From Escherichia coli (GTDB taxonomy: Bacteria; Pseudomonadota; Gammaproteobacteria; Enterobacterales; Enterobacteriaceae), in assembly GCF_013122565.1 (NCBI RefSeq), contig NZ_CP053258.1: a stretch of 64,000 nucleotides of DNA. One strand, given 5' to 3'. Numbering within the stretch: position 1 is the stretch's first letter; each line of letters opens with the position of its first letter. Made by a program: the position numbers and the translations under genes. The notes under the pieces were generated by a model. The model worked only from the letters and a program-made list of their open reading frames with translations, made no database searches and was not told the origin of the DNA. This document shows positions 6,664 through 44,114 of the stretch, piece by piece.

Positions 6664-6939
6664 CTATCGCACAGGATGAATAAGATAATTCGCCTTTGTC
6701 GGAAAAGGGGGCGGAATTTCTTCTGTGAGGTTTAATGGTGGCGCATCTTCTCTCATTTTTAACAAAATCGCCTGTGATGGCTGAAATTTTGTAGAGTGAG
6801 TTGTCGTCATCGCTGACGTTTTTTCCGTCTCTTTATAGCTCGCCTCACTACCACCACCAGAAATAGAAAATGCAAAAACATTGCATGCCATAATAGAGAC
6901 CAATAAAAATAAGCTAAAAAGCATTAAGTTTACTTTCAT
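6664..6939 (-). CDS. ypdI: Putative lipoprotein YpdI
   Basis: 91-aa ORF with signal peptide and lipobox-like ...IMAC; position matches E. coli ypdI. Confidence 0.75.
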   Translation of the reverse strand: MKVNLMLFSLFLLVSIMACNVFAFSISGGGSEASYKETEKTSAMTTTHSTKFQPSQAILLKMREDAPPLNLTEEIPPPFPTKANYLIHPVR

Positions 6940-7081
6940 AGAAAGTTATCCTGAAAATGGTTCACTGAAAACCTACGATGTTATGGCTGTATTTACATAT
7001 AATTAATCAGTATTTACATCGATATAATAAATGATATCTCTTTGTGGTATATAAGAATAGTTCTCTGTGACAGGAAGCAGA

Positions 7082-7099
7082 TTCCTACAATTGTAAGAC
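7082..7099. promoter_or_regulatory. Putative EvgA box upstream of yfdX
   Basis: ttcctaca-at-tgtaagac matches the 18-bp EvgA inverted-repeat consensus TTCYTACA-NN-TGTARGAA at 17 of 18 positions, about 135 bp upstream of yfdX. Confidence 0.45.
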
Positions 7100-7234
7100 T
7101 AAAATACTTCTTGCGATAATAACTACAACTGTAAGACAATCCTTTCAAAATGACCGTTGCTCTCTGATTTCTCATTTCATGCTCACCCAATATGATGGCG
7201 GCGTTTTCTAAAACTGTTAAAGAATGAGGTAAGT

Positions 7235-9631: not shown

Positions 9632-9684
9632 TATTAACGGGAGCTTCTGGCTCCCAATTTATAAAAATTTCGAGGTTATTAATC

Positions 9685-11379: not shown

Positions 11380-11448
11380 ATACTGACATCGTCTCCTCTT
11401 GCCAACTTATTATGCGATGGTGAGGGGACCCTTATCGGAAATACTATT

Positions 11449-12393
11449 ATGCTAACATTTTTTATTGGCGATTTATTGCCTATTATCGTAATCATGCTGT
11501 TGGGTTATTTTAGCGGCAGACGAGAAACTTTTTCAGAAGATCAAGCCCGGGCATTTAATAAACTGGTATTAAACTACGCTCTTCCTGCGGCTCTATTTGT
11601 TTCTATTACCAGGGCAAACAGGGAAATGATTTTTGCGGACACTCGTCTGACCCTTGTATCACTTGTGGTTATTGTCGGATGTTTCTTTTTCTCCTGGTTC
11701 GGTTGCTACAAATTTTTTAAACGTACTCATGCAGAAGCAGCTGTATGTGCATTAATTGCGGGTTCACCTACCATTGGATTCCTGGGGTTTGCAGTTCTCG
11801 ATCCTATTTATGGTGATTCCGTATCAACAGGTTTAGTGGTAGCAATTATTTCTATTATTGTTAACGCAATTACTATTCCTATTGGTCTGTATTTGCTGAA
11901 TCCTTCCTCAGGAGCGGATGGTAAGAAGAATAGTAATCTGAGCGCATTAATTTCTGCGGCAAAGGAGCCAGTAGTATGGGCACCTGTTCTGGCAACGATC
12001 CTGGTGTTGGTTGGGGTAAAAATTCCGGCAGCATGGGACCCAACCTTTAATCTGATTGCGAAGGCTAACTCAGGGGTAGCGGTATTCGCTGCGGGGTTGA
12101 CTCTGGCTGCACATAAATTCGAGTTCAGTGCCGAAATTGCTTATAACACCTTCCTGAAGCTGATTCTGATGCCACTGGCGCTGCTTCTCGTTGGTATGGC
12201 ATGTCATTTGAACAGCGAACATTTGCAGATGATGGTACTGGCAGGCGCATTACCGCCGGCATTCTCCGGAATCATTATTGCCAGCCGGTTTAATGTCTAC
12301 ACCCGCACTGGTACAGCGTCATTGGCTGTGAGCGTACTGGGCTTTGTCGTCACGGCTCCCTTGTGGATTTATGTCAGTCGACTGGTTTCATAA
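11449..12393 (+). CDS. yfdV: AEC-family transporter YfdV
   Basis: 314-aa polytopic membrane ORF; conserved position between oxc and yfdE. Confidence 0.88.
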
Positions 12394-12421
12394 TTAATCA
12401 TGTTATTGATTTTACATAAAT

Positions 12422-12452
12422 GCCGAAGTGTCTTTTCACCTTCGGCTTTTTT
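12422..12452 (+). terminator. Rho-independent terminator-like hairpin after yfdV
   Basis: gccgaagtg...caccttcggc stem followed by TTTTTT. Confidence 0.5.
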
Positions 12453-12466
12453 CAAGGCATAAGAAA

Positions 12467-13612
12467 ATGACAAATAATGAATGTAAAGGGCCGTTTGAAG
12501 GCTTATTAGTTATCGATATGACACATGTCCTTAATGGACCTTTCGGAACTCAACTTCTTTGTAATATGGGCGCAAGGGTAATTAAAGTTGAGCCGCCGGG
12601 TCATGGTGATGATACCCGCACATTTGGTCCCTATGTGGATGGACAGTCACTCTATTACAGTTTTATTAATCATGGCAAAGAGAGTGTGGTTCTTGATTTA
12701 AAGAATGATCACGATAAAAGTATATTTATAAATATGCTTAAACAAGCTGATGTATTAGCTGAGAATTTTCGCCCAGGTACAATGGAAAAACTGGGGTTTT
12801 CATGGGAAAGGTTACAAGAAATCAACCCGCGCCTCATATATGCTTCATCGTCGGGTTTCGGGCATACCGGTCCGTTAAAAGATGCTCCTGCCTACGATAC
12901 CATTATTCAGGCAATGAGCGGGATAATGATGGAAACAGGGTACCCTGATGCTCCTCCAGTGCGTGTTGGTACCTCTCTTGCGGATCTATGCGGCGGTGTC
13001 TACTTATTCAGCGGAATCGTGAGTGCACTTTATGGCCGCGAAAAGAGCCAGAGAGGGGCGCATGTCGATATAGCGATGTTTGATGCCACGCTGAGTTTTC
13101 TGGAGCATGGTCTGATGGCATATATTGCGACAGGGAAGTCACCACAACGTCTGGGAAATCGCCATCCCTACATGGCACCTTTTGATGTTTTCGATACTCA
13201 GGATAAGCCGATTACGATTTGTTGTGGTAATGACAAGCTTTTTTCTGCGTTATGCCAGGCACTGGAGCTTACGGAACTGGTTAATGATCCCCGATTTAGC
13301 AGCAATATTTTACGTGTACAAAACCAGGCTATTCTTAAACAATATATTGAGCGGACGTTAAAAACGCAGGCAGCTGAAGTTTGGTTAGCCAAAATACATG
13401 AAGTTGGTGTGCCTGTCGCGCCGTTATTAAGTGTGGCTGAGGCCATTAATTTGCCACAAACTCAGGCGAGAAATATGTTGATTGAAGCCGGAGGAATAAT
13501 GATGCCGGGTAATCCGATAAAAATCAGCGGCTGCGCGGACCCGCATGTTATGCCGGGAGCGGCAACGCTCGACCAGCATGGGGAACAAATTCGCCAGGAG
13601 TTCTCATCATAA
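12467..13612 (+). CDS. yfdE: Acetyl-CoA:oxalate CoA-transferase YfdE (family III CoA-transferase)
   Basis: ORF 12428..13612; ATG at 12467 gives MTNNECKGPFEGLLVIDMTHVLNGPFG..., a paralogue of Frc. Confidence 0.9.
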   Translation: MTNNECKGPFEGLLVIDMTHVLNGPFGTQLLCNMGARVIKVEPPGHGDDTRTFGPYVDGQSLYYSFINHGKESVVLDLKNDHDKSIFINMLKQADVLAENFRPGTMEKLGFSWERLQEINPRLIYASSSGFGHTGPLKDAPAYDTIIQAMSGIMMETGYPDAPPVRVGTSLADLCGGVYLFSGIVSALYGREKSQRGAHVDIAMFDATLSFLEHGLMAYIATGKSPQRLGNRHPYMAPFDVFDTQDKPITICCGNDKLFSALCQALELTELVNDPRFSSNILRVQNQAILKQYIERTLKTQAAEVWLAKIHEVGVPVAPLLSVAEAINLPQTQARNMLIEAGGIMMPGNPIKISGCADPHVMPGAATLDQHGEQIRQEFSS

Positions 13613-13667
13613 ATGTAAGATGTGCTGGTAAATAGCTCCCACATTTGAACATTGTGGGAGCCGCTAT

Positions 13668-16600
13668 TTAGTCTTTTTGTTGACAGAAAACAGAAATCTC
13701 CTGGTCCAGCTCTGCAATGTGTTCTTTTACAGAGTTCAGCAACTGAAGAATTTCAGGCTTACTGTCATCTGAAACAGGTGTTATTTCTAACTGATGGCTA
13801 ATATTAATCAACTTTTGCAAATTCAGGATGTTAGCCGCACCGTGGATGCGATGAATACACTGATGGAAAGTTCTGTTATCGCCAGCTTCTAGTGCATGAA
13901 ACGCAGCGGGTAGATCTTTATGCGTTTCATGCTGGAAAGTCATGAGAATCTCCTGCATCAGTTGTAGATCGTTCGCCGTATTATTTTTCAGGGCTTCGAT
14001 ATCAAGGTGGCGATACTGAGGTGCAATATGCGCAACCTGGTGTAACTGACTTAAATGTGTTTTCAGTACATCCAGGGTCAACGGTTTGAACAAACATAAG
14101 TTCATGCCGCAATTTAACCCTTTTTCACGTTCGTTAGCCTGTGCGTTGGCAGTAAGCCCCCAGATGGGTAAGGAAGAATTTTGCTCACGGAGTTTGCGAG
14201 TCAACTCAAAACCATCCATATTCGGCATATTAACGTCAGTAATAAGCAGATCATAATGTTGCATACTGACTTTGTGTAGCGCTTGCACACCATCAGTGGC
14301 TTCATCAACATCATATCCTAATAGATTTAGCTGGCGTTTGAGTAATAGCCTGTTGGTTGGATGATCATCCGCGATTAATATGCTCAACTTTTCAGGCAGT
14401 GTGATGGGTTGTTCTGCCTTTGCCTCGACAGTCGCCACTTGTTGGATAATTTCTACCGGGATTGTGATCGTAAATGTTGTTCCTATGCCTGGATGACTTT
14501 CTAATGACAAATCGCCCTGCATGTTTTTAATTAATTCTTTGCAGATCATTAAGCCTAAACCAGAACCTGTTTGCTGACGACCTGCACTTGTTTGGCTATA
14601 ACGTTTAAACAGTTGTTGTTGTTCTTCCTGTGATAATCCACTTCCAGAATCCATAATCGTCATTTTGATTACAGCGTGGTTGTCATCAATGTGAACCAGG
14701 GAGGTCGTAATTTTTACTGCCCCCTCGGTGGTAAATTTGAGAGCATTGCTCAGTAAATTAGATAAGACCTGCTTAAACGCCTGAGGGTCGATCTTAACCA
14801 GGTAATGTTCAGGAAACGTACTGCTGCAACTTAATGCGATCGATTTGCTTGCAGCAATCGCACCGAAAGAGTGACAAGTGTTCTGGACTAAAGTAGGGAT
14901 ATCGACCCATTGTGGTTGAAGTTGATAGTTACCCGATTCAATTTTGTCGACATCAAGGATTTCACCAATTAAGCCGAGGAGTGATTGTCCGGTGGCGTAG
15001 GCAAGTGAAATCGCCTCCACCCGTTGCTCCTTGCTAAGACCAGAACCCGACAGAAGTTCCAGGAAGCCCATAATGGAGCTTATTGGTGTTCTTATTTCGT
15101 GACTCATTGTTGCCAGAAACTGGCTTTTTGCGACAGTTGCATTGATCGCTTTATTTCTCTCTACTTCGAGTGCATGAATTAAATCACGCGTCTCGGTAAT
15201 ATCTTGCCAACCACAAATATAAACAGCATGATCGCTGGCTGGCAGATTGCATAATGTATGCCAGTGATTAATGCATCTTTTCTCGATGCCATTATCAATT
15301 TCAAATACCTGTGTGTATATTGTTCGATTTTCTTTCGTTTCTGCTGTGACTTCATGCGCATTAGAAAAAACATCTTTAAAGGGGGAGTCACTGTTTTCTA
15401 ATGGTAACATTGCATTTTTGTAGTAATCCGCAGTGAAATAATGTTCAAAAGCACTATTATGACTAATGACATTACCTTGCCAGTTTACAACATAAGTTGG
15501 ATTCGGTAAGGAATCCGAGAGTGCTTTCCGGAATGATATTTGGTTTTCTAAATCACCCTGAATGACTTTACGACGACGAACTGAGCGTAACAGGTAGAAT
15601 CCCCATAAAAGGCTACTGCCAACTAATAAAACGGATAATGTCGTAACAATATAAAATTGCTCGCTATAGAGGTCCCATGTGTCAATGGTCACATTGGGCA
15701 TTTTAATCCATTTTTCCGTCAGGCGCAGAACTTCGCTTGGGGGAATTGCATTCAGTGCTTTATTAATAATATCCTTAAGTTCTGGTTCTCCACGAGGAAA
15801 AGCGAACGAAAGCGATGCATTCGGAACGCCAGGAATAAGAAAATGATAAAGCTCATTAGGATAGTAATGGTCGATCATATAACGCGAATTTAGCTGTGTC
15901 GCGACCAGAGCATCAAGTTCACCTTCCTTAACCTTGTGAAATGCAGCGCTGGCATTATCGACTTGTATCCACTCAACCTCCGGATACATCTCTTTTAATT
16001 GCGAATGCAGCTCATAATAATATGGAATGGCAACTTTCATTCCTTTTTTTAATGTTTGTTCACTGTCAGGCGCTTTTTGCATGACAAAAACGTATGGTGT
16101 TGTTATGAAAGCTTCTGCAAATGAAACATTATTTTCTCGATCTTCACTATAAATAGCGCCAGGTATTATATCCCATCCACCGGGGCTAAGCTGTGTTCCG
16201 GCATGGATATTGTGTGAAACGGTGATCGGAGAAAAATTTAAACCTGTTTGCAAGGTAATAATATTAAGAATATCCCCCATAACGCCCCGAACCGAGCCAT
16301 TTTCATCCGTCATAGAATAGGGAGGAGAGTAAGGATTTTCCAGCACCTTTAAATCGGGATGTTGTTTAATCCACTGTTTTTCATGTTCAGTGAGTTCTAA
16401 TGGTTTGTTCAGAAAGGCCAGGTTTCCTGTATCAAGCCAATTTTGTGATACTTCATAGCGAACTTCATTTGTTAAAGCATCAACAAATCTATTGAGTACT
16501 TCATTAAGAATGACAGATTCTTTTCTGGTCAAGAAAAAATTATATTGACGCGGCGAGTTATAATATTTCACTACATTTAAGGAGTGAGTGAAATAGCGGG

Positions 16601-17261
16601 AAATCATACTGCTGGTAATGATGTTACTACCAATAAAGTAATCATTCTGTCCGGCTGATACGGATGCTAATGCCTGATATAAATTTGTAAAAGAGATAAT
16701 TGTTGCTTTTGGAAATGATTGATGAATTACCTCGTCTGGGGGGTAATTTGCTACCCGAGCAATATTTACTGGTTTTGGTGAGGTAAGCGGTCGCATTGAG
16801 TCGTGAAGGGTGGTTACCAGCGCCGGAAAGGTAATTATCAATGGTTTGGTTGCAGCAATGTCATTATTAAGAGGCGGCGAAGTAACTAAATGTGATAACA
16901 CTATATCGACTTCACCTTCTGTAAGCGCGTCCATTGCTTTTTGATGATCTGCGTATTCCCGGAGTGTTAATTTGATATTTAACGCTCTTTTTAAAAGATT
17001 TAAATAATCAGCATTAATACCACGAACCTGTTGCTGCGAATCGGTATGCAACAACGTAGCCGTTTGGGACTTGTGTACTGCAATCACAAGATTTTTTTTG
17101 CTCGCTAACCAACGTAATTCCTTGTTGCTCAGACGTACTGGATCAAGTGTGACACGGTTGTTACTACTGATGCCACGATATTCGATGTAATCTTCGTCTG
17201 CGAAACTTATGGTCGACCAAAGACTACAACAGAGAAGAAAAAAATAGGGTAAAAACTTCAT
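13668..17261 (-). CDS. evgS: Hybrid sensor histidine kinase EvgS
   Basis: 1197-aa ORF with signal peptide, two periplasmic binding-protein-like domains, HisKA/HATPase, receiver and HPt domains. Confidence 0.95.
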   Translation of the reverse strand: MKFLPYFFLLCCSLWSTISFADEDYIEYRGISSNNRVTLDPVRLSNKELRWLASKKNLVIAVHKSQTATLLHTDSQQQVRGINADYLNLLKRALNIKLTLREYADHQKAMDALTEGEVDIVLSHLVTSPPLNNDIAATKPLIITFPALVTTLHDSMRPLTSPKPVNIARVANYPPDEVIHQSFPKATIISFTNLYQALASVSAGQNDYFIGSNIITSSMISRYFTHSLNVVKYYNSPRQYNFFLTRKESVILNEVLNRFVDALTNEVRYEVSQNWLDTGNLAFLNKPLELTEHEKQWIKQHPDLKVLENPYSPPYSMTDENGSVRGVMGDILNIITLQTGLNFSPITVSHNIHAGTQLSPGGWDIIPGAIYSEDRENNVSFAEAFITTPYVFVMQKAPDSEQTLKKGMKVAIPYYYELHSQLKEMYPEVEWIQVDNASAAFHKVKEGELDALVATQLNSRYMIDHYYPNELYHFLIPGVPNASLSFAFPRGEPELKDIINKALNAIPPSEVLRLTEKWIKMPNVTIDTWDLYSEQFYIVTTLSVLLVGSSLLWGFYLLRSVRRRKVIQGDLENQISFRKALSDSLPNPTYVVNWQGNVISHNSAFEHYFTADYYKNAMLPLENSDSPFKDVFSNAHEVTAETKENRTIYTQVFEIDNGIEKRCINHWHTLCNLPASDHAVYICGWQDITETRDLIHALEVERNKAINATVAKSQFLATMSHEIRTPISSIMGFLELLSGSGLSKEQRVEAISLAYATGQSLLGLIGEILDVDKIESGNYQLQPQWVDIPTLVQNTCHSFGAIAASKSIALSCSSTFPEHYLVKIDPQAFKQVLSNLLSNALKFTTEGAVKITTSLVHIDDNHAVIKMTIMDSGSGLSQEEQQQLFKRYSQTSAGRQQTGSGLGLMICKELIKNMQGDLSLESHPGIGTTFTITIPVEIIQQVATVEAKAEQPITLPEKLSILIADDHPTNRLLLKRQLNLLGYDVDEATDGVQALHKVSMQHYDLLITDVNMPNMDGFELTRKLREQNSSLPIWGLTANAQANEREKGLNCGMNLCLFKPLTLDVLKTHLSQLHQVAHIAPQYRHLDIEALKNNTANDLQLMQEILMTFQHETHKDLPAAFHALEAGDNRTFHQCIHRIHGAANILNLQKLINISHQLEITPVSDDSKPEILQLLNSVKEHIAELDQEISVFCQQKD

Positions 17262-17265
17262 GTGA

Positions 17266-17880
17266 TTAGCCGATTTTGTTACGTTGCGCGAATGTGTAAA
17301 GATCCATCAGTGATTTACATTCTAATTTTTCCATCAGGCGACTTTTATACGTGCTGACAGTTTTGTTGCTGATGAACATTTTTTCCGCAATGTCATTATT
17401 ATCCTTGCCATCAAGAATATACCTCATGACACTAATTTCTTGTTTCGATAAGGAGTCGAGTTTTTGCTGGTCGGACGTTAAACTTCCAACAAACCGGTTG
17501 AGAGAGAAGGGGAAATAGCAGTAGCCATTTTTTGCAGCTTCAATAGCCGCAATGATATTGTTCATGCCTTCTTTTTTACTCACGAATCCATTAGCGCCAG
17601 CATCAGCACAATGTTTCCCGTAAAAATGGTCATTTTTAGCGGAGACAATAATAATAATTCCGCTATATTGGCGCTTCCTCAGCGTTTCTAACACCTGGAT
17701 ACCGTTAACTCCGGGGATATCGACATCAATGATGACGATATCAGGCTTAAGTGTTTCCACCCGCTGAACGGCGCTTCCCCCTTCAGTCAACTCCGCTAAG
17801 ATTTCAATATCGTTTTTGATCAATAGATTACGAATTGCTGCGATAGCAAGAGGATGGTCATCAATAATTATTGCGTTCAT
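17266..17880 (-). CDS. evgA: Response regulator EvgA (NarL/FixJ family)
   Basis: 204-aa ORF with receiver domain (MNAIIIDDHPLAIAAIRNLL...) and C-terminal LuxR-type HTH. Confidence 0.95.
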   Translation of the reverse strand: MNAIIIDDHPLAIAAIRNLLIKNDIEILAELTEGGSAVQRVETLKPDIVIIDVDIPGVNGIQVLETLRKRQYSGIIIIVSAKNDHFYGKHCADAGANGFVSKKEGMNNIIAAIEAAKNGYCYFPFSLNRFVGSLTSDQQKLDSLSKQEISVMRYILDGKDNNDIAEKMFISNKTVSTYKSRLMEKLECKSLMDLYTFAQRNKIG

Positions 17881-18104
17881 AGATTATTCCCTTTGCAATG
17901 AAGCATCTCCCTTCTCCCTGTAGTAATACAGACATAAGGCGTCATCTCATTTTCTCAATAAAAATAAGAAAATCCGAGCTTCCTTTAAGATAATTCGAAA
18001 AGTATACCATATAAATAGTCGGCATAAATGAAATGTCAACAATAAAATTAGGGATTATACCGATGATTTATAGTTTCAAGTTAGCACTATAAGTCTTCTC
18101 ACTA

Positions 18105-32494: not shown

Positions 32495-34638
32495 TGGAAA
32501 TGGCATCAGCGTTTACTCTTAATGTTCGTCTGGACAACATTGCCGTTATCACCATTGATGTTCCTGGTGAGAAAATGAATACCCTGAAGGCGGAATTTGC
32601 CTCGCAGGTGCGCGCCATTATTAAGCAACTCCGTGAAAACAAAGAGTTGCGCGGCGTGGTGTTTGTCTCCGCTAAACCGGACAACTTTATCGCCGGAGCA
32701 GACATCAACATGATCGGCAACTGCAAAACGGCGCAAGAAGCGGAAGCTCTGGCGCGGCAGGGCCAACAGTTGATGGCGGAGATTCATGCTTTGCCCATTC
32801 CGGTTATTGCCGCTATTCATGGCGCTTGCCTGGGCGGTGGGCTGGAGCTGGCGCTGGCGTGCCACGGTCGCGTTTGTACTGACGATCCTAAAACGGTGCT
32901 CGGTTTGCCTGAAGTACAACTTGGATTGTTACCCGGTTCAGGCGGCACCCAGCGTTTACCGCGTCTGATAGGCGTCAGTACAGCATTAGAGATGATTCTC
33001 ACCGGAAAACAATTTCGGGCGAAACAGGCATTAAAGCTGGGGCTGGTGGATGACGTCGTTCCGCACTCCATTTTGCTGGAAGCCGCTGTTGAGCTGGTAA
33101 AGCAGGATCGTCCATCTTCCCGCCCTCTACCTGTACGCGAGCGTATTCTGGCGGGGCCGTTAGGTCGTGCGTTGCTGTTCAAAATGGTCGGCAAGAAAAC
33201 AGAACACAAAACTCAAGGTAACTATCCGGCGACAGAACGCATCCTGGAGGTTGTCGAAACGGGATTAGCGCAGGGCACCAGCAGTGGCTATGACGCTGAA
33301 GCACGAGCGTTTGGCGAACTGGCGATGACGCCGCAATCGCAGGCTCTGCGTAGTATCTTTTTTGCCAGTACGGACGTGAAGAAAGATCCCGGCAGTGATG
33401 CGCCGCCTGCGCCATTAAACAGCGTGGGGATTTTAGGTGGTGGCTTGATGGGCGGCGGTATTGCTTATGTCACTGCCTGTAAAGCGGGGCTTCCGGTCAG
33501 AATTAAAGATATCAACCCGCAGGGCATAAATCATGCGCTGAAGTACAGTTGGGATCAGCTGGAGGGCAAAGTTCGCCGTCGTCATCTCAAAGCCAGCGAA
33601 CGTGACAAACAGCTGGCATTAATCTCCGGAACGACGGACTATCGCGGCTTTGCCCATCGAGATCTGATTATTGAAGCGGTGTTTGAAAATCTCGCATTAA
33701 AACAACAAATGGTGGCGGAAGTTGAGCAAAATTGCGCCGCTCATACCATCTTTGCTTCGAATACGTCATCTCTACCGATTGGTGATATCGCCGCTCACGC
33801 CGCGCGACCTGAGCAAGTTATTGGCCTGCATTTCTTCAGTCCGGTGGAAAAAATGCCGCTGGTGGAGATTATTCCTCATGCGGGTACATCGGCGAAAACA
33901 ATTGCCACTACGGTAAAACTGGCGAAAAAACAGGGCAAAACGCCAATTGTCGTGCGTGACAAAGCCGGGTTTTACGTCAATCGCATCTTAGCGCCTTACA
34001 TTAATGAAGCTATCCGCATGCTGACCGAAGGTGAACGGGTAGAGCATATTGATGCCGCTCTAGTGAAATTTGGTTTTCCGGTAGGTCCAATCCAACTTTT
34101 GGATGAGGTAGGAATCGACACCGGGACTAAAATTATTCCTGTACTGGAAGCCGCTTATGGAGAACGTTTTAGCGCGCCTGCAAATGTTGTTTCTTCAATT
34201 TTGAACGACGATCGCAAAGGCAGAAAAAATGGTCGGGGTTTCTATCTTTATGGTCAGAAAGGGCGTAAAAGCAAAAAACAGGTCGATCCCGCCATTTACC
34301 CGCTCATTGGCGCACAAGGGCAGGGGCGACTCTCCGCACCGCAGGTTGTTGAACGGTGTGTGATGTTGATGCTGAATGAAGCAGTACGTTGTGTTGACGA
34401 GCAGGTTATCCGTAGCGTGCGTGACGGGGATATTGGTGCGGTATTTGGCATTGGTTTTCCGCCATTTCTCGGTGGACCGTTCCGCTATATCGATTCTCTC
34501 GGCGCGGGCGAAGTGGTTGCAATAATGCAACGACTGGCCACGCAGTATGGTTCCCGTTTTACCCCTTGTGAGCGTTTAGTCGAGATGGGCGCACGTGGGG
34601 AAAGTTTTTGGAAAACAACTGCAACTGACCTGCAATAA
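32494..34638 (+). CDS. fadJ: Multifunctional fatty-acid oxidation complex alpha subunit FadJ
   Basis: 714-aa ORF with enoyl-CoA hydratase and 3-hydroxyacyl-CoA dehydrogenase domains; start overlaps the fadI stop. Confidence 0.95.
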
Positions 34639-34840
34639 GAAGGTCAAAGCTATATGAATCCGCGCTGAATGGCGGAGTGATGGTCAAAATGTAAACGCAT
34701 ATTGACTATACTTACGCCATTGAGGTAAAAAACAGCGTTTCATTCGGTGAATGGATAAGGCACAATGCCGGCCACCGTTTTCTTTCTCTGGTTTCAGATG
34801 AAAGAAAACGGGCGAATCTGGTTAACAAAAGCGGTGCAAT

Positions 34841-35326
34841 ATGCAAGTTTTTATCATGCGTCACGGCGACGCAGCCCTCGATGCCGCCAGTGATTCGGTT
34901 CGTCCTCTGACTACTAACGGTTGTGACGAATCTCGCCTGATGGCGAACTGGCTGAAAGGTCAAAAAGTGGAAATCGAACGCGTTCTGGTGAGCCCGTTCC
35001 TGCGAGCCGAGCAAACACTGGAAGAAGTAGGGGATTGTCTGAACCTGCCTTCCAGTGCAGAAGTTCTGCCGGAGTTAACGCCCTGCGGCGATGTTGGTCT
35101 GGTCAGTGCCTATTTACAGGCGTTGACCAATGAAGGTGTTGCTTCGGTACTGGTGATCTCCCACTTACCGTTAGTCGGGTATCTGGTTGCCGAGTTATGT
35201 CCGGGCGAAACGCCGCCTATGTTTACCACCTCAGCCATTGCCAGCGTAACGCTTGATGAAAGCGGAAACGGCACATTCAACTGGCAGATGAGCCCGTGTA
35301 ATCTGAAGATGGCAAAAGCTATCTGA
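34841..35326 (+). CDS. sixA: Phosphohistidine phosphatase SixA
   Basis: 161-aa ORF MQVFIMRHGDA... carrying the RHG phosphatase motif. Confidence 0.93.
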   Translation: MQVFIMRHGDAALDAASDSVRPLTTNGCDESRLMANWLKGQKVEIERVLVSPFLRAEQTLEEVGDCLNLPSSAEVLPELTPCGDVGLVSAYLQALTNEGVASVLVISHLPLVGYLVAELCPGETPPMFTTSAIASVTLDESGNGTFNWQMSPCNLKMAKAI

Positions 35327-35977
35327 AGCTATAGAAATATGCCCGGTGAGATCACGTCATCGGGCATCTCCTTTCGTTCCTCTTGGCTGTATTCACACAT
35401 TTTCCCATTGATTAGGCGATTATTTTTGTGGAGCTATATTTCATATTTATATGAATGGCAGGTTTTTCCGGGAATGACATATCGTGTGGCGGAGGGTTAT
35501 TTAAGGAATGCAATGACATTTATTAGAGGAGCCTGTAACAATAGGCACACGTAAATAAAATTAAAAAGGAGTTGTGTCTTGATTTATATTATATATTGTT
35601 TTTCATTAATTATCCGCAGAAAAAAACAGAAATCGCATTTTTTTGTTGTTGCTTTCTTATTACCCACTTTGTAATGTGGCCCATATGAATTTAACCGTTA
35701 TGCAATAATTACGTTCTGTATTCATAGGGAATTCCTCAAAAAACATTATCCATAGTGATATTTTAAGTTTTACTTAAAATCATTGTTAGTAAAACTAATT
35801 TGAATTCACCGTTCAAAACTCCCACTATCGCCGCACACCAAAGAATATCATCTTATGCAATCTTTTGCGGGAAGCAATGACGCATATTCGATGGTCATCT
35901 CTAAGCCGCTCACTTCAATATTAATCTGAGGTTTTCCGGCGCTTATAATTTAATTATTTATGGTTTAAGGACAAATA

Positions 35978-36544
35978 ATGAGTAAGTTTGTTAAAACTGC
36001 TATTGCAGCGGTGATGGTAATGGGTGCGTTCGCGTCAACTTCTTCCATCGCTGCCGGTAACAACGGTACCGCGCGTTTCTACGGCACCATCGAAGATTCC
36101 CCGTGCTCCATCGTGCCTGACGACCACAAACTGGAAGTTGATATGGGCGATATCGGTTCTGAAACACTGAAAGGCAGTAAATCAACCACCCCGAAAGAGT
36201 TCCAGATCCGCCTGCAGGACTGCGTGTTTGATACTCAGGCCAAGGCTTCGACTGTCTTCACCGGCACCATCTATACTGCGGTCGCCAACAGCAACAACTA
36301 CACCATTTTCAGCACCGAAACCGGTATGCCATTTGAGCATGTCAGCCTGGCGATTGGTGATGAACATGGCGCGGCATACAAAAGCGGTATGCCTATCGAA
36401 CAGGCGCTTACTATAGATTCCAGCACCACGAAAGGTAAACCTAACCAGACGCTGAACTTTAAAGCATGGCTGGTGGGTGAAAGTGAAATGCCGACCCTGG
36501 GGGCATTTGAAGCTAACACCACGTTCCAGATCACTTATCTCTGA
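35978..36544 (+). CDS. yfcV: Fimbrial major subunit YfcV
   Basis: 188-aa ORF with signal peptide and C-terminal fimbrial beta-strand (...TFQITYL). Confidence 0.88.
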   Translation: MSKFVKTAIAAVMVMGAFASTSSIAAGNNGTARFYGTIEDSPCSIVPDDHKLEVDMGDIGSETLKGSKSTTPKEFQIRLQDCVFDTQAKASTVFTGTIYTAVANSNNYTIFSTETGMPFEHVSLAIGDEHGAAYKSGMPIEQALTIDSSTTKGKPNQTLNFKAWLVGESEMPTLGAFEANTTFQITYL

Positions 36545-36550
36545 TGTTTC

Positions 36551-36582
36551 ACCCCATGGCGGCAACGTCATGGGGTTTTTTA
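36551..36582 (+). terminator. Intra-operon hairpin between the major subunit and usher genes
   Basis: accccatg...catggggt stem followed by a T-run; typical attenuator position in chaperone-usher operons. Confidence 0.5.
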
Positions 36583-36613
36583 ATTGATTCTGACGAAATT
36601 ATAATAATCACGG

Positions 36614-39277
36614 ATGGATACGTGTATGCCAGACCATTCTCTTTTCCGTTTACGGGTGCTTCCCTGGTATATTGCGCTGGCAATATCCGGAAGCTATGCC
36701 AGTGCCTGGGCTGATGATGATATTCAGTTTGATTCCCGTTTTCTGGAATTAAAAGGCGACGCAAAAGTCGATCTGAAACGTTTTTCCAGTCAGGGCTATG
36801 TCGAGCCGGGTAAATATAATTTACAGGTTCAGGTAAATAAGCAGCCGCTCCCGGATGAGTACGATATTTTCTGGTATGCCTCTGAAAAAGATGCCGGTAA
36901 AAGTTATGCCTGCCTGACGCCCACGCTGCTCGCCCAGTTTGGTCTGAAAGAGGAGATTGTAAAAAATCTGCAATGGTCCCGCAACGGCGAATGCCTCGCG
37001 CCAGGTCAGCTGGAAGGGACAGAGATTAAGGCTGATTTAAGCCAGTCCGCGTTATTAATCTCCCTGCCACAGGCCTATCTGGAATACAGCGATATGGACT
37101 GGGACCCGCCTTCCCGCTGGGACGATGGTATTCCCGGCCTGATTGCTGACTACAGCATTAACGCCCAGACCCGCCACGATGAGCAGAGCGGCGATGACAG
37201 TAACGACATCAGCGGTAACGGCACGGTAGGGGTAAACCTCGGCCCGTGGCGTCTGCGCGCCGACTGGCAGACGGACTACCAGCATACCCGCAGCGACGAT
37301 GACGATGAATACAGCGACAGTGACGGCAACAGCACACAAAGAAACTGGGAGTGGAGCCGCTACTACGCCTGGCGCGCCCTGCCGTCATTAAAAGCCAAAC
37401 TTGCGCTCGGCGAAGATTACCTCAACTCCGATATTTTCGACGGCTTTAACTATGTCGGCGGCAGCGTCAGCACTGAAGACCAGATGTTACCGCCAAATAT
37501 GCGCGGCTACGCCCCCGATATTTCCGGGGTGGCGCACACCACGGCGAAAGTGACCGTCAGCCAGATGGGCCGCGTCATTTACGAAACCCAGGTTCCGGCG
37601 GGGCCGTTCCGCATTCAGGATTTGGGCGATTCCATCTCCGGTACGCTGCATGTGCGTATTGAAGAGCAGAACGGTCAGGTGCAGGAATATGATATCAGCA
37701 CCGCGTCGATGCCGTTCCTGACCCGTCAGGGCCAGGTGCGCTATAAAGTGATGATGGGCCGCCCGCAGGAGTGGGGGCACGATATTGCCGGCGGATTTTT
37801 CTCCGGCGGTGAAGCCTCCTGGGGGATTGCCAACGGCTGGTCGCTCTACGGCGGCGCGCTGGCGGATGAAAACTATCAGTCGGCGGCCATTGGCGTCGGG
37901 CGTGACCTGTCAATTCTTGGTGCGATGGCCTTTGACGTCACGCACTCACATGTCCGCCTGGATGACAACACTGCCTACGACAATCGTACCCTGGACGGTA
38001 ACTCGTTCCGCGTGAGCTATGCCAAAGACTTTGACGAACTCGACAGCCGCGTTACCTTCGCCGGATACCGCTTCTCTGAAAAAAACTTCATGACCATGAG
38101 CGAATATCTGGATGCGAAAGATGCGGACATGGTGCGCTCCGGCAACGATAAAGAGATGTACACGGTTACCTACAACCAGAACTTCCGGGATGCCGCGGTT
38201 TCTGTCTATCTCAACTACACCCACCGCACCTACTGGGACCGGCCGGAACAGACCAACTACAACGTGATGATGTCCCACTATTTCAATATGGGCAGCATCC
38301 GCAACATGAGCGTGTCCCTGACCGGTTACCGCTACGAATACGACAAAAGCACCGACAAAGGGATGTATATCTCGCTGAGTATGCCGTGGGGCGACAGCAG
38401 TACCGTCAGCTATAACGGCAACTACGGCAGCGGCTCAGACTCCAGCCAGGTCGGTTATTTCAGCCGTATCGACGATGCCTCGCATTACCAGATTAACGTC
38501 GGCACCAGCGAAAACCACGGCAGCGTGGATGGCTACTACAGCCATGACGGCTCGCTGGCGCAGGTGGATTTAAGTGCCAACTACCATGAAGGCGAGTATC
38601 AGTCTGCCGGGATTTCACTGCAGGGCGGCGCGACGCTGACCGCGCACGGCGGGGCGCTGCACCGCACGCAATCGCCCGGCGGGACACGTCTGCTGATTGA
38701 CGCTGACGGCGTGTCCGGCGTGCCGGTGGAAGGTAACGGTTCGCCGGTTTACACCAACATGTTTGGTAAAGCGGTCGTGGCGGATGTCAACAACTACTAC
38801 CGTAACCAGGCCTATATCGACCTGACTAAACTGCCGGAAAACGCCGAAGCCACCCAGTCGGTGGTGCAGGCCACGCTGACCGAGGGCGCGATTGGCTACC
38901 GCCAGTTTGCAGTGATCAGCGGGCAGAAAGCGATGGCGGTACTGCGCCTGAGCGACGGCAGCCATCCGCCGTTTGGTGCGGAAGTGAAAAACAGCGACGA
39001 GCAGCAGGTGGGGCTGGTTGACGATGACGGCAACGTCTATCTGGCCGGGGTGAAACCGGGCGAGCGGATGACGGTGTCGTGGAACGGTGAGACACACTGT
39101 GACATCGCGCTGCCGGACCCGTTACCGGCCGATCTGTTCAACGGCCTGTTGCTGCCCTGCCAGAACCGGGGTGCCGTCGCGCCTGCCACCTCGCCGGACG
39201 TCAAACCGGTGATTCAGGAGCAGACGCAGCAGGTGACACCAACGGAACCCCCGACTTCAATTTCAGTAAACCAGTAA
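36614..39277 (+). CDS. yfcU: Fimbrial usher protein, apparently intact
   Basis: 887-aa uninterrupted ORF with usher-family features. Confidence 0.88.
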   Translation: MDTCMPDHSLFRLRVLPWYIALAISGSYASAWADDDIQFDSRFLELKGDAKVDLKRFSSQGYVEPGKYNLQVQVNKQPLPDEYDIFWYASEKDAGKSYACLTPTLLAQFGLKEEIVKNLQWSRNGECLAPGQLEGTEIKADLSQSALLISLPQAYLEYSDMDWDPPSRWDDGIPGLIADYSINAQTRHDEQSGDDSNDISGNGTVGVNLGPWRLRADWQTDYQHTRSDDDDEYSDSDGNSTQRNWEWSRYYAWRALPSLKAKLALGEDYLNSDIFDGFNYVGGSVSTEDQMLPPNMRGYAPDISGVAHTTAKVTVSQMGRVIYETQVPAGPFRIQDLGDSISGTLHVRIEEQNGQVQEYDISTASMPFLTRQGQVRYKVMMGRPQEWGHDIAGGFFSGGEASWGIANGWSLYGGALADENYQSAAIGVGRDLSILGAMAFDVTHSHVRLDDNTAYDNRTLDGNSFRVSYAKDFDELDSRVTFAGYRFSEKNFMTMSEYLDAKDADMVRSGNDKEMYTVTYNQNFRDAAVSVYLNYTHRTYWDRPEQTNYNVMMSHYFNMGSIRNMSVSLTGYRYEYDKSTDKGMYISLSMPWGDSSTVSYNGNYGSGSDSSQVGYFSRIDDASHYQINVGTSENHGSVDGYYSHDGSLAQVDLSANYHEGEYQSAGISLQGGATLTAHGGALHRTQSPGGTRLLIDADGVSGVPVEGNGSPVYTNMFGKAVVADVNNYYRNQAYIDLTKLPENAEATQSVVQATLTEGAIGYRQFAVISGQKAMAVLRLSDGSHPPFGAEVKNSDEQQVGLVDDDGNVYLAGVKPGERMTVSWNGETHCDIALPDPLPADLFNGLLLPCQNRGAVAPATSPDVKPVIQEQTQQVTPTEPPTSISVNQ

Positions 39278-39296
39278 CGTGATTAAGGAATGATCC

Positions 39297-40040
39297 ATGT
39301 TTAATCTGACTAACACTGCAAAAACCGTTATCCCTGCGCTGGCGCTGCTGGCCAGTTTCTCCAGCCACGCCTCGGTGACACCCGACAGGACGCGGCTGGT
39401 GTTTAACGAAAGCGACAAATCCATCAGCGTCACGCTGCGCAATAATGACCCCAAACTGCCCTATCTGGCGCAGAGCTGGATAGAGGATGCAAAGGGCAAC
39501 AAAATCAGCTCGCCGCTGGCGGTGCTGCCGCCGGTACAGCGCATCGATGCGATGATGAACGGCCAGGTGAAGGTGCAGGGGCTGCCGGATATCAACAAAC
39601 TGCCAGCCGACCGCGAGAGCGTGTTCTACTTTAACGTGCGCGAGATCCCGCCGAAATCAAACAAACCGAACACGCTGCAGATTGCGCTGCAGACGCGCAT
39701 CAAGCTGTTCTGGCGACCGAAGGCGCTGGAAAACGTCAGCATGAAAAACCCGTGGCAGCACAAGGTGACGCTCACCCGCAACGGCCAGGATTTTACCGTC
39801 AATAACCCGACGCCGTACTACGTGATCATCAGCAACGCCAGCGCGAAAAAAGGCGGCAACCCGCCGGCGGGATTCACACCGCTGATGCTGGAGCCGAAAA
39901 CCTCCGCCCCGCTGAATGCGAAGATGGACAGCGTGCCGGTGCTGACCTATATCAACGACTACGGCGCGCGGATGCCGCTGTACTTCAAATGCACCGCCAA
40001 CAACTGCCAGGTGGATGAAGAGCAGAGCCGCAAAGGCTGA
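39297..40040 (+). CDS. yfcS: Periplasmic fimbrial chaperone YfcS
   Basis: 247-aa ORF with signal peptide and PapD-like chaperone features. Confidence 0.88.
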   Translation: MFNLTNTAKTVIPALALLASFSSHASVTPDRTRLVFNESDKSISVTLRNNDPKLPYLAQSWIEDAKGNKISSPLAVLPPVQRIDAMMNGQVKVQGLPDINKLPADRESVFYFNVREIPPKSNKPNTLQIALQTRIKLFWRPKALENVSMKNPWQHKVTLTRNGQDFTVNNPTPYYVIISNASAKKGGNPPAGFTPLMLEPKTSAPLNAKMDSVPVLTYINDYGARMPLYFKCTANNCQVDEEQSRKG

Positions 40041-40055
40041 TGCCGGGAGGGACTT

Positions 40056-40553
40056 ATGAGTCACAAGTTTTTAGCGGGGGCGGGGTTGCTGGTATTCAGT
40101 CTCTGTAGTTTCCCGGTTATGGCTGGCAGTAAAACCGTAGAGTTAACTCTGCGCGTGTTAGTGGATGCGCCACCACCGTGCTCCGTGAAGGGCAGTGCGG
40201 TGGAATTTGGCAATGTGACGATCAACAAGATCGATGGCACGAATTACCGACAGGATGCGAAATACACCCTGAGCTGCGGCAATAAAGCCAGCGACGATTT
40301 ACAGATGCAGCTCAAAGGGAATACCGCCGTTATCAACGGAGAAACGGTCCTCAGTACGGATATTGCCGGCCTGGGTGTGCGGATAGAAAACGCTGCCGAT
40401 AATTCCCTGTTTGCGGTAGGTGAAAATACCTGGACGCCTTTTAACTATAACACTCAGCCACAGCTGAAAGCGGTGCTGGTAAAACAGAGCGGAGTGCAGT
40501 TAACGCCGTCGGAATTTAACGCCACTCTGACCATGGTGGTGGATTACCAATGA
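40056..40553 (+). CDS. yfcR: Fimbrial-like protein YfcR
   Basis: 165-aa ORF with signal peptide and C-terminal ...VVDYQ motif. Confidence 0.82.
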   Translation: MSHKFLAGAGLLVFSLCSFPVMAGSKTVELTLRVLVDAPPPCSVKGSAVEFGNVTINKIDGTNYRQDAKYTLSCGNKASDDLQMQLKGNTAVINGETVLSTDIAGLGVRIENAADNSLFAVGENTWTPFNYNTQPQLKAVLVKQSGVQLTPSEFNATLTMVVDYQ

Positions 40554-41038
40554 AAAGACTCACGCTGATTTTACTGTGCACCTGCTGGGGCACAGCCCAG
40601 GCCGCCGACGAGGACATCACATTTCATGGCACCCTGGCATCGCCGCCCGCCTGTAGCATCAGCGGCGGGAAAACCATTGAAGTGGAGTTTCGCGATCTCA
40701 TTATCGACAGCATTAACGGGAATTATGGCCGGCAGGAAGTTGTATATGAGCTTAGCTGCGAATCCGATGCCCGCGATCCTGGCTGGCAAATGTCCCTGAC
40801 GTGGACCGGCACGCCCACCAGCTACAACGATGCCGCCATCGAGACGGATGTGCCGGGCTTCGGGATTGAGCTTCAGCATGACGGACAGCGTTTTCTGCTC
40901 AACACGCCGCTAAACATTGACGCCACGGATTTCAGCAAGAAGCCGAAGCTGGAGGCCGTACCGGTAAAAGCGGCTGATGCGGTGCTGAGTGACACGACTT
41001 TTTCTGCTTACGCAACTTTACGGGTGGATTACCAATGA
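40550..41038 (+). CDS. yfcQ: Fimbrial-like protein YfcQ
   Basis: 162-aa ORF with signal peptide and C-terminal ...RVDYQ; overlaps neighbours by 4 nt. Confidence 0.82.
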   Translation: MKRLTLILLCTCWGTAQAADEDITFHGTLASPPACSISGGKTIEVEFRDLIIDSINGNYGRQEVVYELSCESDARDPGWQMSLTWTGTPTSYNDAAIETDVPGFGIELQHDGQRFLLNTPLNIDATDFSKKPKLEAVPVKAADAVLSDTTFSAYATLRVDYQ

Positions 41039-41574
41039 AAATAGCACGCACTTATACGCCGGCTTACGCGCTGTTCGCGGGCCTGCTGCTGACCGCCAGC
41101 ACAGACACTTTCGCCATGGACAACAACCTGCATTTTTACGGCAACCTGCTGAGTAAATCCTGCACGCTGGTGGTGGACGGTACCAACCTGGCAGAAATTC
41201 ATTTCCCCACCGTCAGCAACCGGGATTTGATGGTCGCCGGGCAGTCCGCGCATCTGCCGGTTGTGTTTAAGCTGAAAGACTGCAAAGGGCCTGCGGGATA
41301 CAACGTCAAAGTCACGCTGAGCGGCACTGAAGACAGCGGTCAGCCGGGATTTCTGGCAATCGATGACACCTCCACCGCGCAGGGGGTGGGGATAGGGATG
41401 GAAACGCTTGACGGCAAGCGGGTGGATATTAACAACACCACCGGTGCGACCTTCGCGCTTATCAACGGTAACAATGACATTAATTTCAGGGCCTGGATCC
41501 AGGCGAAAAGCAGTCGGGATGTGACGATCGGTGAATTTACCGCCTCTTTAACTGCGACATTTGAGTACATTTAA
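41035..41574 (+). CDS. yfcP: Fimbrial-like protein YfcP
   Basis: 179-aa ORF with signal peptide and C-terminal ...TFEYI. Confidence 0.82.
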   Translation: MKIARTYTPAYALFAGLLLTASTDTFAMDNNLHFYGNLLSKSCTLVVDGTNLAEIHFPTVSNRDLMVAGQSAHLPVVFKLKDCKGPAGYNVKVTLSGTEDSGQPGFLAIDDTSTAQGVGIGMETLDGKRVDINNTTGATFALINGNNDINFRAWIQAKSSRDVTIGEFTASLTATFEYI

Positions 41575-42394
41575 AATGAAAATACTACGATGGTTGTTCG
41601 CTCTGGTCATGCTTATGTCTGCGACAGAAGCTCTGGCTGCCGGGCATAGCATCAAGCTTTACTACGGAATTAGCCATGATCTGCAGGCTATCACGGCTTT
41701 TAGCCTGAAAATCATGATGCCATCAGGGGTCTACGATGGAGAATATAAGAGTAGTAACTTTGCACACATAGGGGATTATCTGCAAAATATAAGCTGGAAT
41801 GGTCCGCCTCCTGCACCTTCAGTAAAGATGATAGACTACAAGCAAAAGCTCGATGAATCATTATGCCCGGGGCTACCTTCTGGGTGGCTCTGTGGGTCTC
41901 TTGAATTTGAAATTATTGTTTCTGCTGATATTGAATCTTTCTTTTCTTGCCCTTGGTTGGTTGTTATGAGTGATACCGTGACCTCTAGAGGTGTGGCTTA
42001 TAAGGGGCCGGACGGTTATGCCACACTTTGTCAAACTGTTTCTGTTCAACCTTATGATGTTTCATGGAATGAGAATTATGTCAGTAAGTCTAAACTGCTC
42101 ACTCTGCAATCGACGGGCGGTGTGGTTGAGAAAACGCTTTCAACGTATTTAATGAAAGATGGCAAATTGTGCGACAGTTCGCAGATGAATGAAGCCGGTG
42201 GTTACTGCCGCTGGGTTGCGCAGATGATAACTTTTACTGCAACGGGATGTGATAAGGCGGAAGTCACTGTCACGCCAAATCGACATCCTATAACGGACAA
42301 ACAATTACACGATATGGTCGTGCATGTTGATACCAGTAGTATGCAGCCAATCGATTCTACTTGCCGGTTCCAGTACATACTGAATGAGTTGTAG
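41561..42394 (+). CDS. yfcO: Fimbrial tip adhesin-like protein YfcO
   Basis: 277-aa ORF with signal peptide; last gene of the yfc operon. Confidence 0.8.
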   Translation: MSTFKMKILRWLFALVMLMSATEALAAGHSIKLYYGISHDLQAITAFSLKIMMPSGVYDGEYKSSNFAHIGDYLQNISWNGPPPAPSVKMIDYKQKLDESLCPGLPSGWLCGSLEFEIIVSADIESFFSCPWLVVMSDTVTSRGVAYKGPDGYATLCQTVSVQPYDVSWNENYVSKSKLLTLQSTGGVVEKTLSTYLMKDGKLCDSSQMNEAGGYCRWVAQMITFTATGCDKAEVTVTPNRHPITDKQLHDMVVHVDTSSMQPIDSTCRFQYILNEL

Positions 42395-42410
42395 CCGTTA
42401 GAAACACTCA

Positions 42411-42432
42411 GGCAGGGGCATTCGCCCCTGCC
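42411..42432. terminator. Bidirectional terminator-like hairpin between convergent yfcO and smrB
   Basis: ggcaggggc-attc-gcccctgcc perfect 9-bp stem. Confidence 0.45.
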
Positions 42433-42464
42433 ATTACCCGCTCATGGCGCAACACTCTCCCCCC

Positions 42465-43016
42465 TCAGGGCAACTCCGGTGGCAGCCACTCTTCCACTTC
42501 AATCAACACCAACAACGCCGCATCACCGCCATACTCTTTTGGTGCCTGGTGAAACGCCATCACATGCGGATGTTGTGCCAGCCACAGCGGTGTTTGTTGC
42601 TTCAAAATATGCTTCCCGTGACCATGCATCACGCAGGCGCAAAACACATGTTCGCGGCGACAGGCGGCAATCAACGCGCCCAGTTCCTGCTTGGCCTGCA
42701 GCTGCGTCAGACCGTGTAAATCCAAAAACAATTCCGGCGAATAATCGCCACGGCGCAACTTCTTCGCCTCAAAATGACTCACATCCGGGCGAACATATTT
42801 CACCGGACCTTCGGTATTTAATAACGGCTGAAACTCATCGGAGAAATAATGGCTGGCATCAGCCTGCTCCTGAATCAAGCGTTTCACCGGTACTTCGCTG
42901 ATTTTCTTACGCTGTGGTCGGTGGACAATCGTGTCCTGCTTAATCTTGCGAGTCCCCGCCATCAACTGGCGAAACAGCGCCTGGTCCTCCTCGCTTAGTG
43001 TTGTTTTCTTTTTCAT
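42465..43016 (-). CDS. smrB: Ribosome rescue endonuclease SmrB (Smr domain protein)
   Basis: 183-aa ORF with an Smr domain (LDLHGLT...HGHG). Confidence 0.9.
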
Positions 43017-43181
43017 TTATGTATCTCTATTTCTAATTTTCCTACAGTTTACCCGACTCGTAGCACAATCGATCGTTTTAAACGTATTTTTCCTCACTCA
43101 CCGCGCGTGAATGCTGATTTATCGTCATCTTCATGGCAAACTAGCCGCCGAAATTATTGCGATCATGCCCTGGAGGAATAC

Positions 43182-44114
43182 GTGGATAAAATTTTCGTTG
43201 ATGAAGCAGTAAATGAGCTGCAAACCATTCAGGACATGTTGCGCTGGTCGGTGAGCCGCTTCAGCGCGGCAAATATCTGGTACGGTCACGGCACCGATAA
43301 CCCGTGGGATGAAGCCGTACAGCTGGTGTTGCCTTCGCTCTACCTGCCGCTGGATATCCCGGAAGATATGCGCACCGCGCGTCTGACCTCCAGCGAAAAA
43401 CACCGTATTGTTGAACGCGTGATCCGCCGCGTCAACGAACGCATTCCGGTGGCTTACCTGACCAACAAAGCGTGGTTCTGCGGCCATGAATTTTACGTCG
43501 ATGAACGTGTGCTGGTGCCGCGCTCGCCGATTGGTGAACTGATCAACAATAAATTTGCCGGACTTATCAGCAAGCAACCGCAGCATATTTTAGATATGTG
43601 TACTGGTAGCGGTTGCATCGCCATTGCCTGTGCTTATGCCTTCCCGGATGCGGAAGTCGACGCGGTGGATATCTCTCCCGACGCGCTGGCGGTTGCTGAA
43701 CAGAACATCGAAGAACACGGTCTGATCCACAACGTCATTCCGATTCGTTCCGATCTGTTCCGCGACTTGCCGAAAGTGCAGTACGACCTGATTGTCACTA
43801 ACCCGCCGTATGTCGATGCGGAAGATATGTCCGACCTGCCAAACGAATACCGCCACGAGCCGGAACTGGGCCTGGCATCTGGCACTGACGGCCTGAAACT
43901 GACGCGTCGCATTCTCGGTAACGCGGCAGATTACCTTGCTGATGATGGCGTGTTGATTTGTGAAGTCGGCAACAGCATGGTACATCTTATGGAACAATAT
44001 CCGGATGTTCCGTTCACCTGGCTGGAGTTTGATAACGGCGGCGATGGTGTGTTTATGCTCACCAAAGAGCAGCTTATTGCCGCACGAGAACATTTCGCGA
44101 TTTATAAAGATTAA
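43182..44114 (+). CDS. prmB: Ribosomal protein L3 glutamine methyltransferase PrmB
   Basis: ORF 43107..44114; GTG at 43182 after a GGAGG RBS gives the 310-aa (M)[13 protein letters not shown]...; NPPY methyltransferase motif present. Confidence 0.9.

Follow-up and report, generated by a model that had tools for sequence, protein, structure and literature searches.

The long AT-rich spacer upstream of the Yfc fimbrial operon of Escherichia coli is probably a non-invertible control region silenced by H-NS

The window, which is the whole 64-kb stretch of DNA analyzed here, contains the genes fadL-yfcZ-fadI-fadJ-sixA, followed by yfcV, the genes for an usher, a chaperone, and three subunits, yfcO, and then smrB-prmB. 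The identity of sixA is confirmed by a match to the Pfam family His_Phos_1. The seven genes yfcV-U-S-R-Q-P-O, all of which have intact open reading frames, constitute a chaperone-usher fimbrial operon of the Yfc/Stf type. Their products match the Pfam families of a fimbrial subunit (PF00419), an usher (PF00577 with PapC_N/C), a chaperone (PapD_N/C), three additional fimbrial subunits, and a DUF2544 adhesin. The open reading frame of sixA ends at position 35326 and the ATG of yfcV is located at 35978, which leaves a gene-free spacer of 651 bp. The locus has the following parts:

35327–35977, plus strand: intergenic spacer between sixA and yfcV, 651 bp, 34.4% GC, the probable regulatory region of the yfc fimbrial operon.
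35339–35367, plus strand: hairpin just 3′ of the sixA stop codon, an inverted repeat (ATGCCCGGTGA...TCATCGGGCAT) that holds the only GATC of the spacer (35350).
35419–35977, plus strand: operon-associated part of the spacer, 559 bp; homology to a yoaB-linked paralogous yfc-like operon begins exactly at 35419.
35507–35806, no strand assigned: core with the lowest GC content (27.3%), where H-NS would most likely bind, as judged from binding data for K-12.
35978–36544, plus strand: yfcV, encoding the fimbrial major subunit, 188 residues, PF00419.
36614–42394, plus strand: remaining genes of the operon, encoding the usher, chaperone, three minor subunits, and YfcO-type adhesin (DUF2544), with intact open reading frames.

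Between yfcV and the usher gene, at 36553–36583, there is a GC-rich hairpin with a T-run on its 3′ side (CCCCATGGCGGCAACGTCATGGGGTTTTTT), which overlaps a chance-level Rfam match to NsiR1. A hairpin between the genes for the major subunit and the usher occupies the classic position of an attenuator, which provides an excess of the major subunit in fimbrial operons. The usher gene is intact in the window; however, it is a pseudogene in many carriers, with internal stop codons in OW1E2 and UTME-7 and a frameshift in VE-T9, as well as in K-12 (yfcU), and it is disrupted by an ISVsa5 insertion in the yoaB-linked copy of MB53. The comparison of positions 28769–44105 with sequenced E. coli genomes indicates that the window is a mosaic: fadIJ reaches 98.3% identity to some strains, the segment from fadL to sixA is only about 93% identical to BL21, and the yfc operon shows an identity of 78% to BL21 and of about 95% to the rare MB53-type allele.

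A previous reading of the DNA, based on its sequence only, described an AT-rich non-coding region of about 650 bp in front of the gene for the fimbrial major subunit; its coordinates proved to be exact. The GC content of the spacer is 34.4%, compared to 49.3% for the whole window, and the 300 bp with the lowest GC content in the window (27.3%) are positioned inside it, at 35507–35806. The AT-rich run pointed out in that reading, ttgatttatattatatattg, is located at 35579–35598. The spacer contains 16 A/T tracts of at least four nucleotides, a number reached by only four of the 195 equal-sized tiles of the window, and the frequency of TpA is approximately twice that of the window. Additional AT-rich stretches of 300 bp, with GC contents of 29–32%, are located in the window at 6859–7158, 27319–27618, 28438–28737, 17798–18097, and 16430–16729.

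The spacer sequence of the window is present, with 92–96% identity, in 13 of 5426 complete E. coli genomes. Ten of these 13 genomes contain a second place that matches the spacer, which belongs to a yfc-like paralogous operon located between yoaB and yoaC. This seven-gene operon is found in 11 of the 5426 genomes, including MB53 (positions 9076–17930 of the retrieved locus) and ET201, and it takes the place of 244 bp of the spacer that usually separates yoaB from yoaC. No mention of it was found in the survey of E. coli chaperone-usher systems that was searched. The homology of the yoaB-linked copy to the window starts sharply at 35419 and continues with 93% identity through 41589. The copy shares the 559-bp upstream region and yfcV-yfcP; however, its gene for the YfcO-family adhesin differs (68%), and the two sequences become similar again from the terminator hairpin 3′ of yfcO onward. 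In MB53, the spacer, yfcV, and the 5′ end of the usher gene are 99.7% identical between the two copies, which suggests gene conversion. Because the homology to the yoaB-linked copy begins at 35419, positions 35327–35418 belong to sixA and positions 35419–35977 to the operon. The natural copy of the 559 bp together with the operon between yoaB and yoaC thus indicates the extent of the upstream DNA that accompanies the operon. The hairpin at 35339–35367, in the part belonging to sixA, is probably the sixA terminator: its position is retained in the sixA-linked alleles, with arms that differ in sequence. The T-run of the hairpin is weak in the window, and therefore the terminator scan did not call it.

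The spacer of K-12 and BL21 is about 680 bp long and approximately 54% identical to that of the window. Eleven allele families were compared, of which seven originate from genomes of E. coli and of species representatives of Escherichia, E. whittamii among them, two were obtained through YfcV homologues named E. albertii, one belongs to an unclassified Escherichia, and one to Pseudocitrobacter. An exact-pattern scan of the species-representative genomes identified three loci, none of which has the allele of the window. The spacers are 558–735 bp long with 26–36% GC in Escherichia, and 573 bp long with 29.5% GC in Pseudocitrobacter. The corresponding stf spacers of Salmonella (636 bp) and Citrobacter (465 bp) both have 23% GC. 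The length and AT-richness have been kept while the sequence has turned over, which suggests selection on composition and length. The Pseudocitrobacter operon adjoins sspB, and the blocks of the promoter, the hairpin arms, and the ribosome-binding site are preserved in its spacer. The spacer between sixA and yfcV occurs in no fewer than ten sequence families, with about 50% identity to each other, a degree of divergence that is unusual in a "core" locus of E. coli. Distant operons of the stfA type from Salmonella salamae, Citrobacter freundii, and Pseudocitrobacter are located elsewhere, after sspB or near a gene of the TraI_2 family. Insertions of IS1 occur in K-12-type sixA-linked or yoaB-linked yfc spacers of several strains (PK8276, HL15, LHM10-1, and CP52E).

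The alignment of the alleles, which are about 50% identical overall, leaves islands of conservation, designated blocks A–E. The blocks and the elements associated with them are:

35572–35615, plus strand: block A (GTCTTGAT..ATATTA..TTAAT-ATTAT), which overlies the promoter identified by SELEX in K-12.
35572–35599, plus strand: distal promoter-like sequence TTGTGT-16-TATTGT, which aligns with the SELEX-predicted TTGAAA-17-TATAGT of K-12 (PMC3946193, Table 2).
35766–35796, no strand assigned: imperfect palindrome with 15-nt arms (87%) that ends 4 bp before the −35 element; its right arm is formed by block B (TTAGTAAAA).
35785–35805, plus strand: block B (TTAGTAAAA-TAA-TTGAAT), which ends in the −35-like TTGAAT.
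35800–35828, plus strand: proximal sigma-70-like promoter, with −35 TTGAAT at 35800–35805, a 17-nt spacer, and a weak −10 CACTAT at 35823–35828; predicted transcription start near A35835.
35838–35894, plus strand: candidate leader hairpin with arms CCAAAGAATA (35838–35847) and TATTCGATGG (35885–35894).
35940–35977, plus strand: block E, with TATAAT at 35944–35949 and the Shine-Dalgarno sequence AAGGA at 35967–35971, 6 nt before the ATG.

The TTG of the −35 element, the 17-nt spacing, and the A2 and T6 of the −10 element of the proximal promoter are invariant in the 11 allele families. Ten of the alleles were evaluated by a script, whereas the aligned TTGAAC-17-CAACAT of E69 was read by eye, because the script had selected another site. 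A conserved CAC(A/G)CC follows the −10 hexamer at a distance of 5–7 nt. Within the group of window-type alleles, there is no variable site in positions 35819–35858, and variable sites occupy 10 of the 155 positions in the conserved blocks, compared to 49 of the 404 positions elsewhere, which is half the density (p = 0.06). The proposed −10 element CACTAT matches the consensus in three of six positions. A scan for promoter and terminator consensus sequences found no enrichment and did not call the weak conserved promoter. From its conservation, we read TTGAAT-17-CACTAT as a putative weak sigma-70 promoter, which would probably depend on activation or derepression. The allele of TR026 contains, at the position of the imperfect palindrome, a perfect 9-bp palindrome TTTTCTAAC-N7-GTTAGAAAA, as identified by eye. 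The matching changes in both arms suggest a site for a dimeric regulator, and it is possible that the palindrome at 35766–35796 is an operator. Matches of the conserved blocks to the consensus sequences of RcsB, Lrp, CpxR, FNR, and IHF were sought by eye, and none were convincing.

The candidate hairpin in the leader has a fold shared by nine of ten alleles, which comprises an outer CCA/UGG stem, a 2 × 2 internal loop, a GAAUA/UAUUC stem, and an allele-specific inner stem. The interior of the hairpin is 23–42 nt long and unrelated between alleles. All 80 pair cells of the hairpin in the ten alleles contain standard pairs; five pairs are invariant and three vary on one side only, always to G-U, and a shuffle control was uninformative. 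No compensatory double changes occur in the ten alleles, and the covariation term calculated by RNAalifold for six alleles is only −0.63 kcal/mol. The z-scores of the fold range from +0.1 to −2.4, with a Stouffer combination, calculated by us under the assumption of independence, of about −3.3. The variable spacing of the arms fits an RNA stem better than phased protein-binding sites; alternatively, it is possible that the arms constitute a pair of conserved sites for protein binding. We put forward, as a speculation that we consider more doubtful than probable by a wide measure, that Yfc/Stf operons carry a conserved and portable control cassette composed of a deliberately weak sigma-70 promoter TTGnnn-17-nAnnnT and a hairpin at about +4, which would exert a post-transcriptional role on top of the silencing by H-NS. 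Such a hairpin would act by stabilizing the mRNA or as a regulatory RNA switch. Its closing stems, CCA/UGG and GAAUA/UAUUC, would be common to all alleles and to a second genus, with an interior that can vary freely, and the cassette would move with the operon between the sixA, yoaB-yoaC, and sspB loci.

The idea from the sequence-only reading that the spacer is a region silenced in the manner of H-NS, belonging to a cryptic fimbrial operon, is supported by data on its K-12 counterpart and by its composition. The spacer between yfcV and sixA of K-12 is one of 78 promoter islands (2453647_489) and is marked as bound by H-NS in the ChIP data of Kahramanoglou and Oshima (PMC3661553, Table 1). The conversion of the published coordinates to the annotation of U00096.3, performed by us, shows that the island spans about 467 bp 5′ of the ATG. 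The K-12 spacer also contains a SELEX peak of the RpoD holoenzyme, with the predicted promoter TTGAAA-17-TATAGT, and a SELEX site of H-NS (PMC3946193, Table 2). According to a passage in PMC3559732, which cites Korea et al. 2010, Yfc is among the core chaperone-usher fimbriae that are functional but cryptic and repressed by H-NS. Overproduction of TosR in strain CFT073 increases the expression of yfcV by log2 5.2 (PMC5956150). The spacers of the window and of K-12 are about 54% identical, so that only blocks A–E align convincingly and the middle is effectively unalignable; for this reason, the binding of H-NS is transferred to the window allele by inference. No site within two mismatches of the H-NS nucleation motif TCGATAAATT is present in the spacer, and there is no 10–11-bp periodicity of AA/TT or of A-tracts in phase with the helix. 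The motif and phased A-tracts are supporting but non-obligatory features of H-NS targets. The spacer contains three promoter-like sites, compared to 3.3 in shuffled sequences; an excess density of such sites defines promoter islands, which were originally scored with PlatProm, and this property is therefore not reproduced by our crude consensus scan. Orthology and composition together provide strong reasons to expect that the window allele is silenced by H-NS.

The precedent of type 1 fimbriae and the long AT-rich spacer in front of a major-subunit gene might indicate a fimS-like invertible promoter, in which a 200–400-bp segment with short inverted repeats and a tyrosine recombinase would make Yfc phase-variable, and the region does contain a few imperfect inverted pairs of 10–12 nt. 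However, positions 35227–36077 include no perfect inverted repeats of at least 9 bp spaced by 100–600 bp, in agreement with the initial impression that no repeats bracket a switch. The longest inverted repeat is 8 bp, whereas dinucleotide shuffles of the same region have a mean longest repeat of 9.2 bp and about two 9-mers by chance, so that the actual repeats are fewer and shorter. The same scan applied to fimE-fimA of K-12, as a positive control, recovers the TTGGGGCCA pair of fimS, 296 bp apart. The best tblastn match of FimE in the 64-kb window has an E-value of 0.25, and no FimE-like recombinase is annotated in the syntenic region of MB53. The spacer has a single orientation. In the complete E. 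coli genomes, each of the 12 copies of the window allele that are linked to sixA is collinear with both flanks. The K-12-type allele is likewise collinear in 3069 genomes, and the 5425 genomes yielded only 18 extra match places. The broken K-12-type cases that were sampled are insertions of IS1. By contrast, the fimS control produced 268 extra places in 4723 records, and the sampled case from GmF046 was verified as an inversion of query positions 145–466. Because inversions were detected in the control, the survey of orientations would have revealed a switch. A fimS-type switch is excluded, since the repeats, recombinase, and orientation polymorphism are all missing while the fimS control is positive, and we regard this explanation as extremely improbable. 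Many chaperone-usher operons use a Pap-type scheme. In such an epigenetic switch, competition between Lrp and Dam takes place at a pair of GATC sites that are separated by about 100 bp, with the participation of PapI/PapB-like helpers. Block B loosely resembles the Lrp consensus (10/15, compared by eye); however, the only GATC of the spacer, at 35350, is inside the putative terminator hairpin of sixA, and the lack of a second one refutes the canonical mechanism. Furthermore, there are no adjacent papI/papB-like open reading frames, and those in the spacer encode at most 71 residues, the longest being without a Pfam match. A Pap-type switch is therefore just as improbable as an invertible one. 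The Yfc promoter is controlled neither by DNA inversion nor by a Dam-methylation switch.

Two other explanations concern the distal part of the spacer. Most of the spacer could be non-functional filler, of drifting or horizontally acquired AT-rich DNA, in which binding of H-NS is incidental and only the last 180 bp or so, with the promoter, leader, and ribosome-binding site, are important. The distal sequences of the alleles cannot be aligned (about 50% identity), there are no conserved blocks 5′ of 35572, the divergence within the allele is as high as 4–7%, and IS1 insertions in the spacer are tolerated in several strains. However, the length and low GC content are maintained in Escherichia, Pseudocitrobacter, Salmonella, and Citrobacter despite the sequence turnover, the copy of the operon at yoaB-yoaC still includes the entire 559 bp, and the K-12 promoter island extends over about 467 bp 5′ of the ATG, which makes the filler explanation unlikely. 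It is far less likely still that a decayed or unannotated gene lies within the spacer, such as the remnant of a regulator, a small protein, or an sRNA. The candidates for such a gene would be the longest open reading frame of the spacer, which encodes 71 residues (35339–35554), and, by analogy, an unannotated 117-residue open reading frame 5′ of stfA in C. freundii. However, no open reading frame of the spacer, including that of 71 residues, matched Pfam, and the start of the latter is outside the module copied to yoaB, in a part that is not conserved between alleles. The search of positions 34500–36800 against Rfam, with E-values up to 1, produced just two chance-level matches, and nothing is annotated by RefSeq within the spacer between sixA and yfcV in K-12 and six other strains.

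The most probable explanation, in which we have considerable though not complete confidence, is that the spacer is an ordinary, non-invertible, AT-rich transcriptional control region of the yfcV-U-S-R-Q-P-O operon that is likely silenced by H-NS. As suggested by orthology and composition, filaments of H-NS would coat the long AT-rich tract and extend across the promoters, thereby silencing the operon during ordinary growth. Phylogenetic footprinting points to transcription from the weak sigma-70 promoter TTGAAT-17-CACTAT, with a start near 35835, and possibly from a second, distal promoter near 35572–35599. Expression would require anti-silencing or activation by regulators that bind AT-rich DNA, in line with the increase of yfcV expression caused by TosR in CFT073. 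The leader of about 143 nt would begin with the hairpin, which, speculatively, may stabilize the mRNA. Nothing specific on a mapped yfc promoter or a link to LeuO was found in the literature that was searched. As a rare divergent allele of a spacer that had already been catalogued as H-NS-bound in K-12, the region adds little new biology; nevertheless, yfcV serves as a marker of uropathogenic E. coli, and the footprint provides concrete coordinates of the promoter (35800–35828), leader hairpin (35838–35894), and palindrome (35766–35796).

Stabilizing stem-loops at the 5′ end are known from enterobacterial mRNAs, including the ompA leader and the processed papA mRNA. The hairpin of yfcV resembles them in its position, about 4 nt from the predicted 5′ end, its conserved closing stems, and its free interior; it differs in that its leader has no compensatory double change and its 5′ end is only inferred, so that the likeness is hypothetical. 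The spacer shares with fimS of type 1 fimbriae its AT-richness and position 5′ of a major-subunit gene; however, it has no flanking inverted repeats, recombinase, or orientation polymorphism. The closest counterpart is the yfcV-sixA spacer of K-12, which has the same chromosomal position and flanking genes, and a similar length (about 680 compared to 651 bp) and GC content (32% compared to 34%); the conserved blocks and the ribosome-binding region are shared as well. By contrast, the SELEX-predicted TTGAAA-17-TATAGT of K-12 is degraded to TTGTGT-16-TATTGT in the window, and the usher gene yfcU of the K-12 operon is a pseudogene, whereas that of the window is intact. The spacers of sfmA, yadN, yehD, ybgD, elfA, ecpR, and fimA are H-NS-bound promoter islands (PMC3661553, Table 1). 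They precede operons of other usher clades, some of which possess dedicated regulators (EcpR, FimB/E) that the Yfc operon lacks; however, like the spacer of the window, they consist of long AT-rich DNA directly 5′ of the gene for the major subunit, a likeness of layout.
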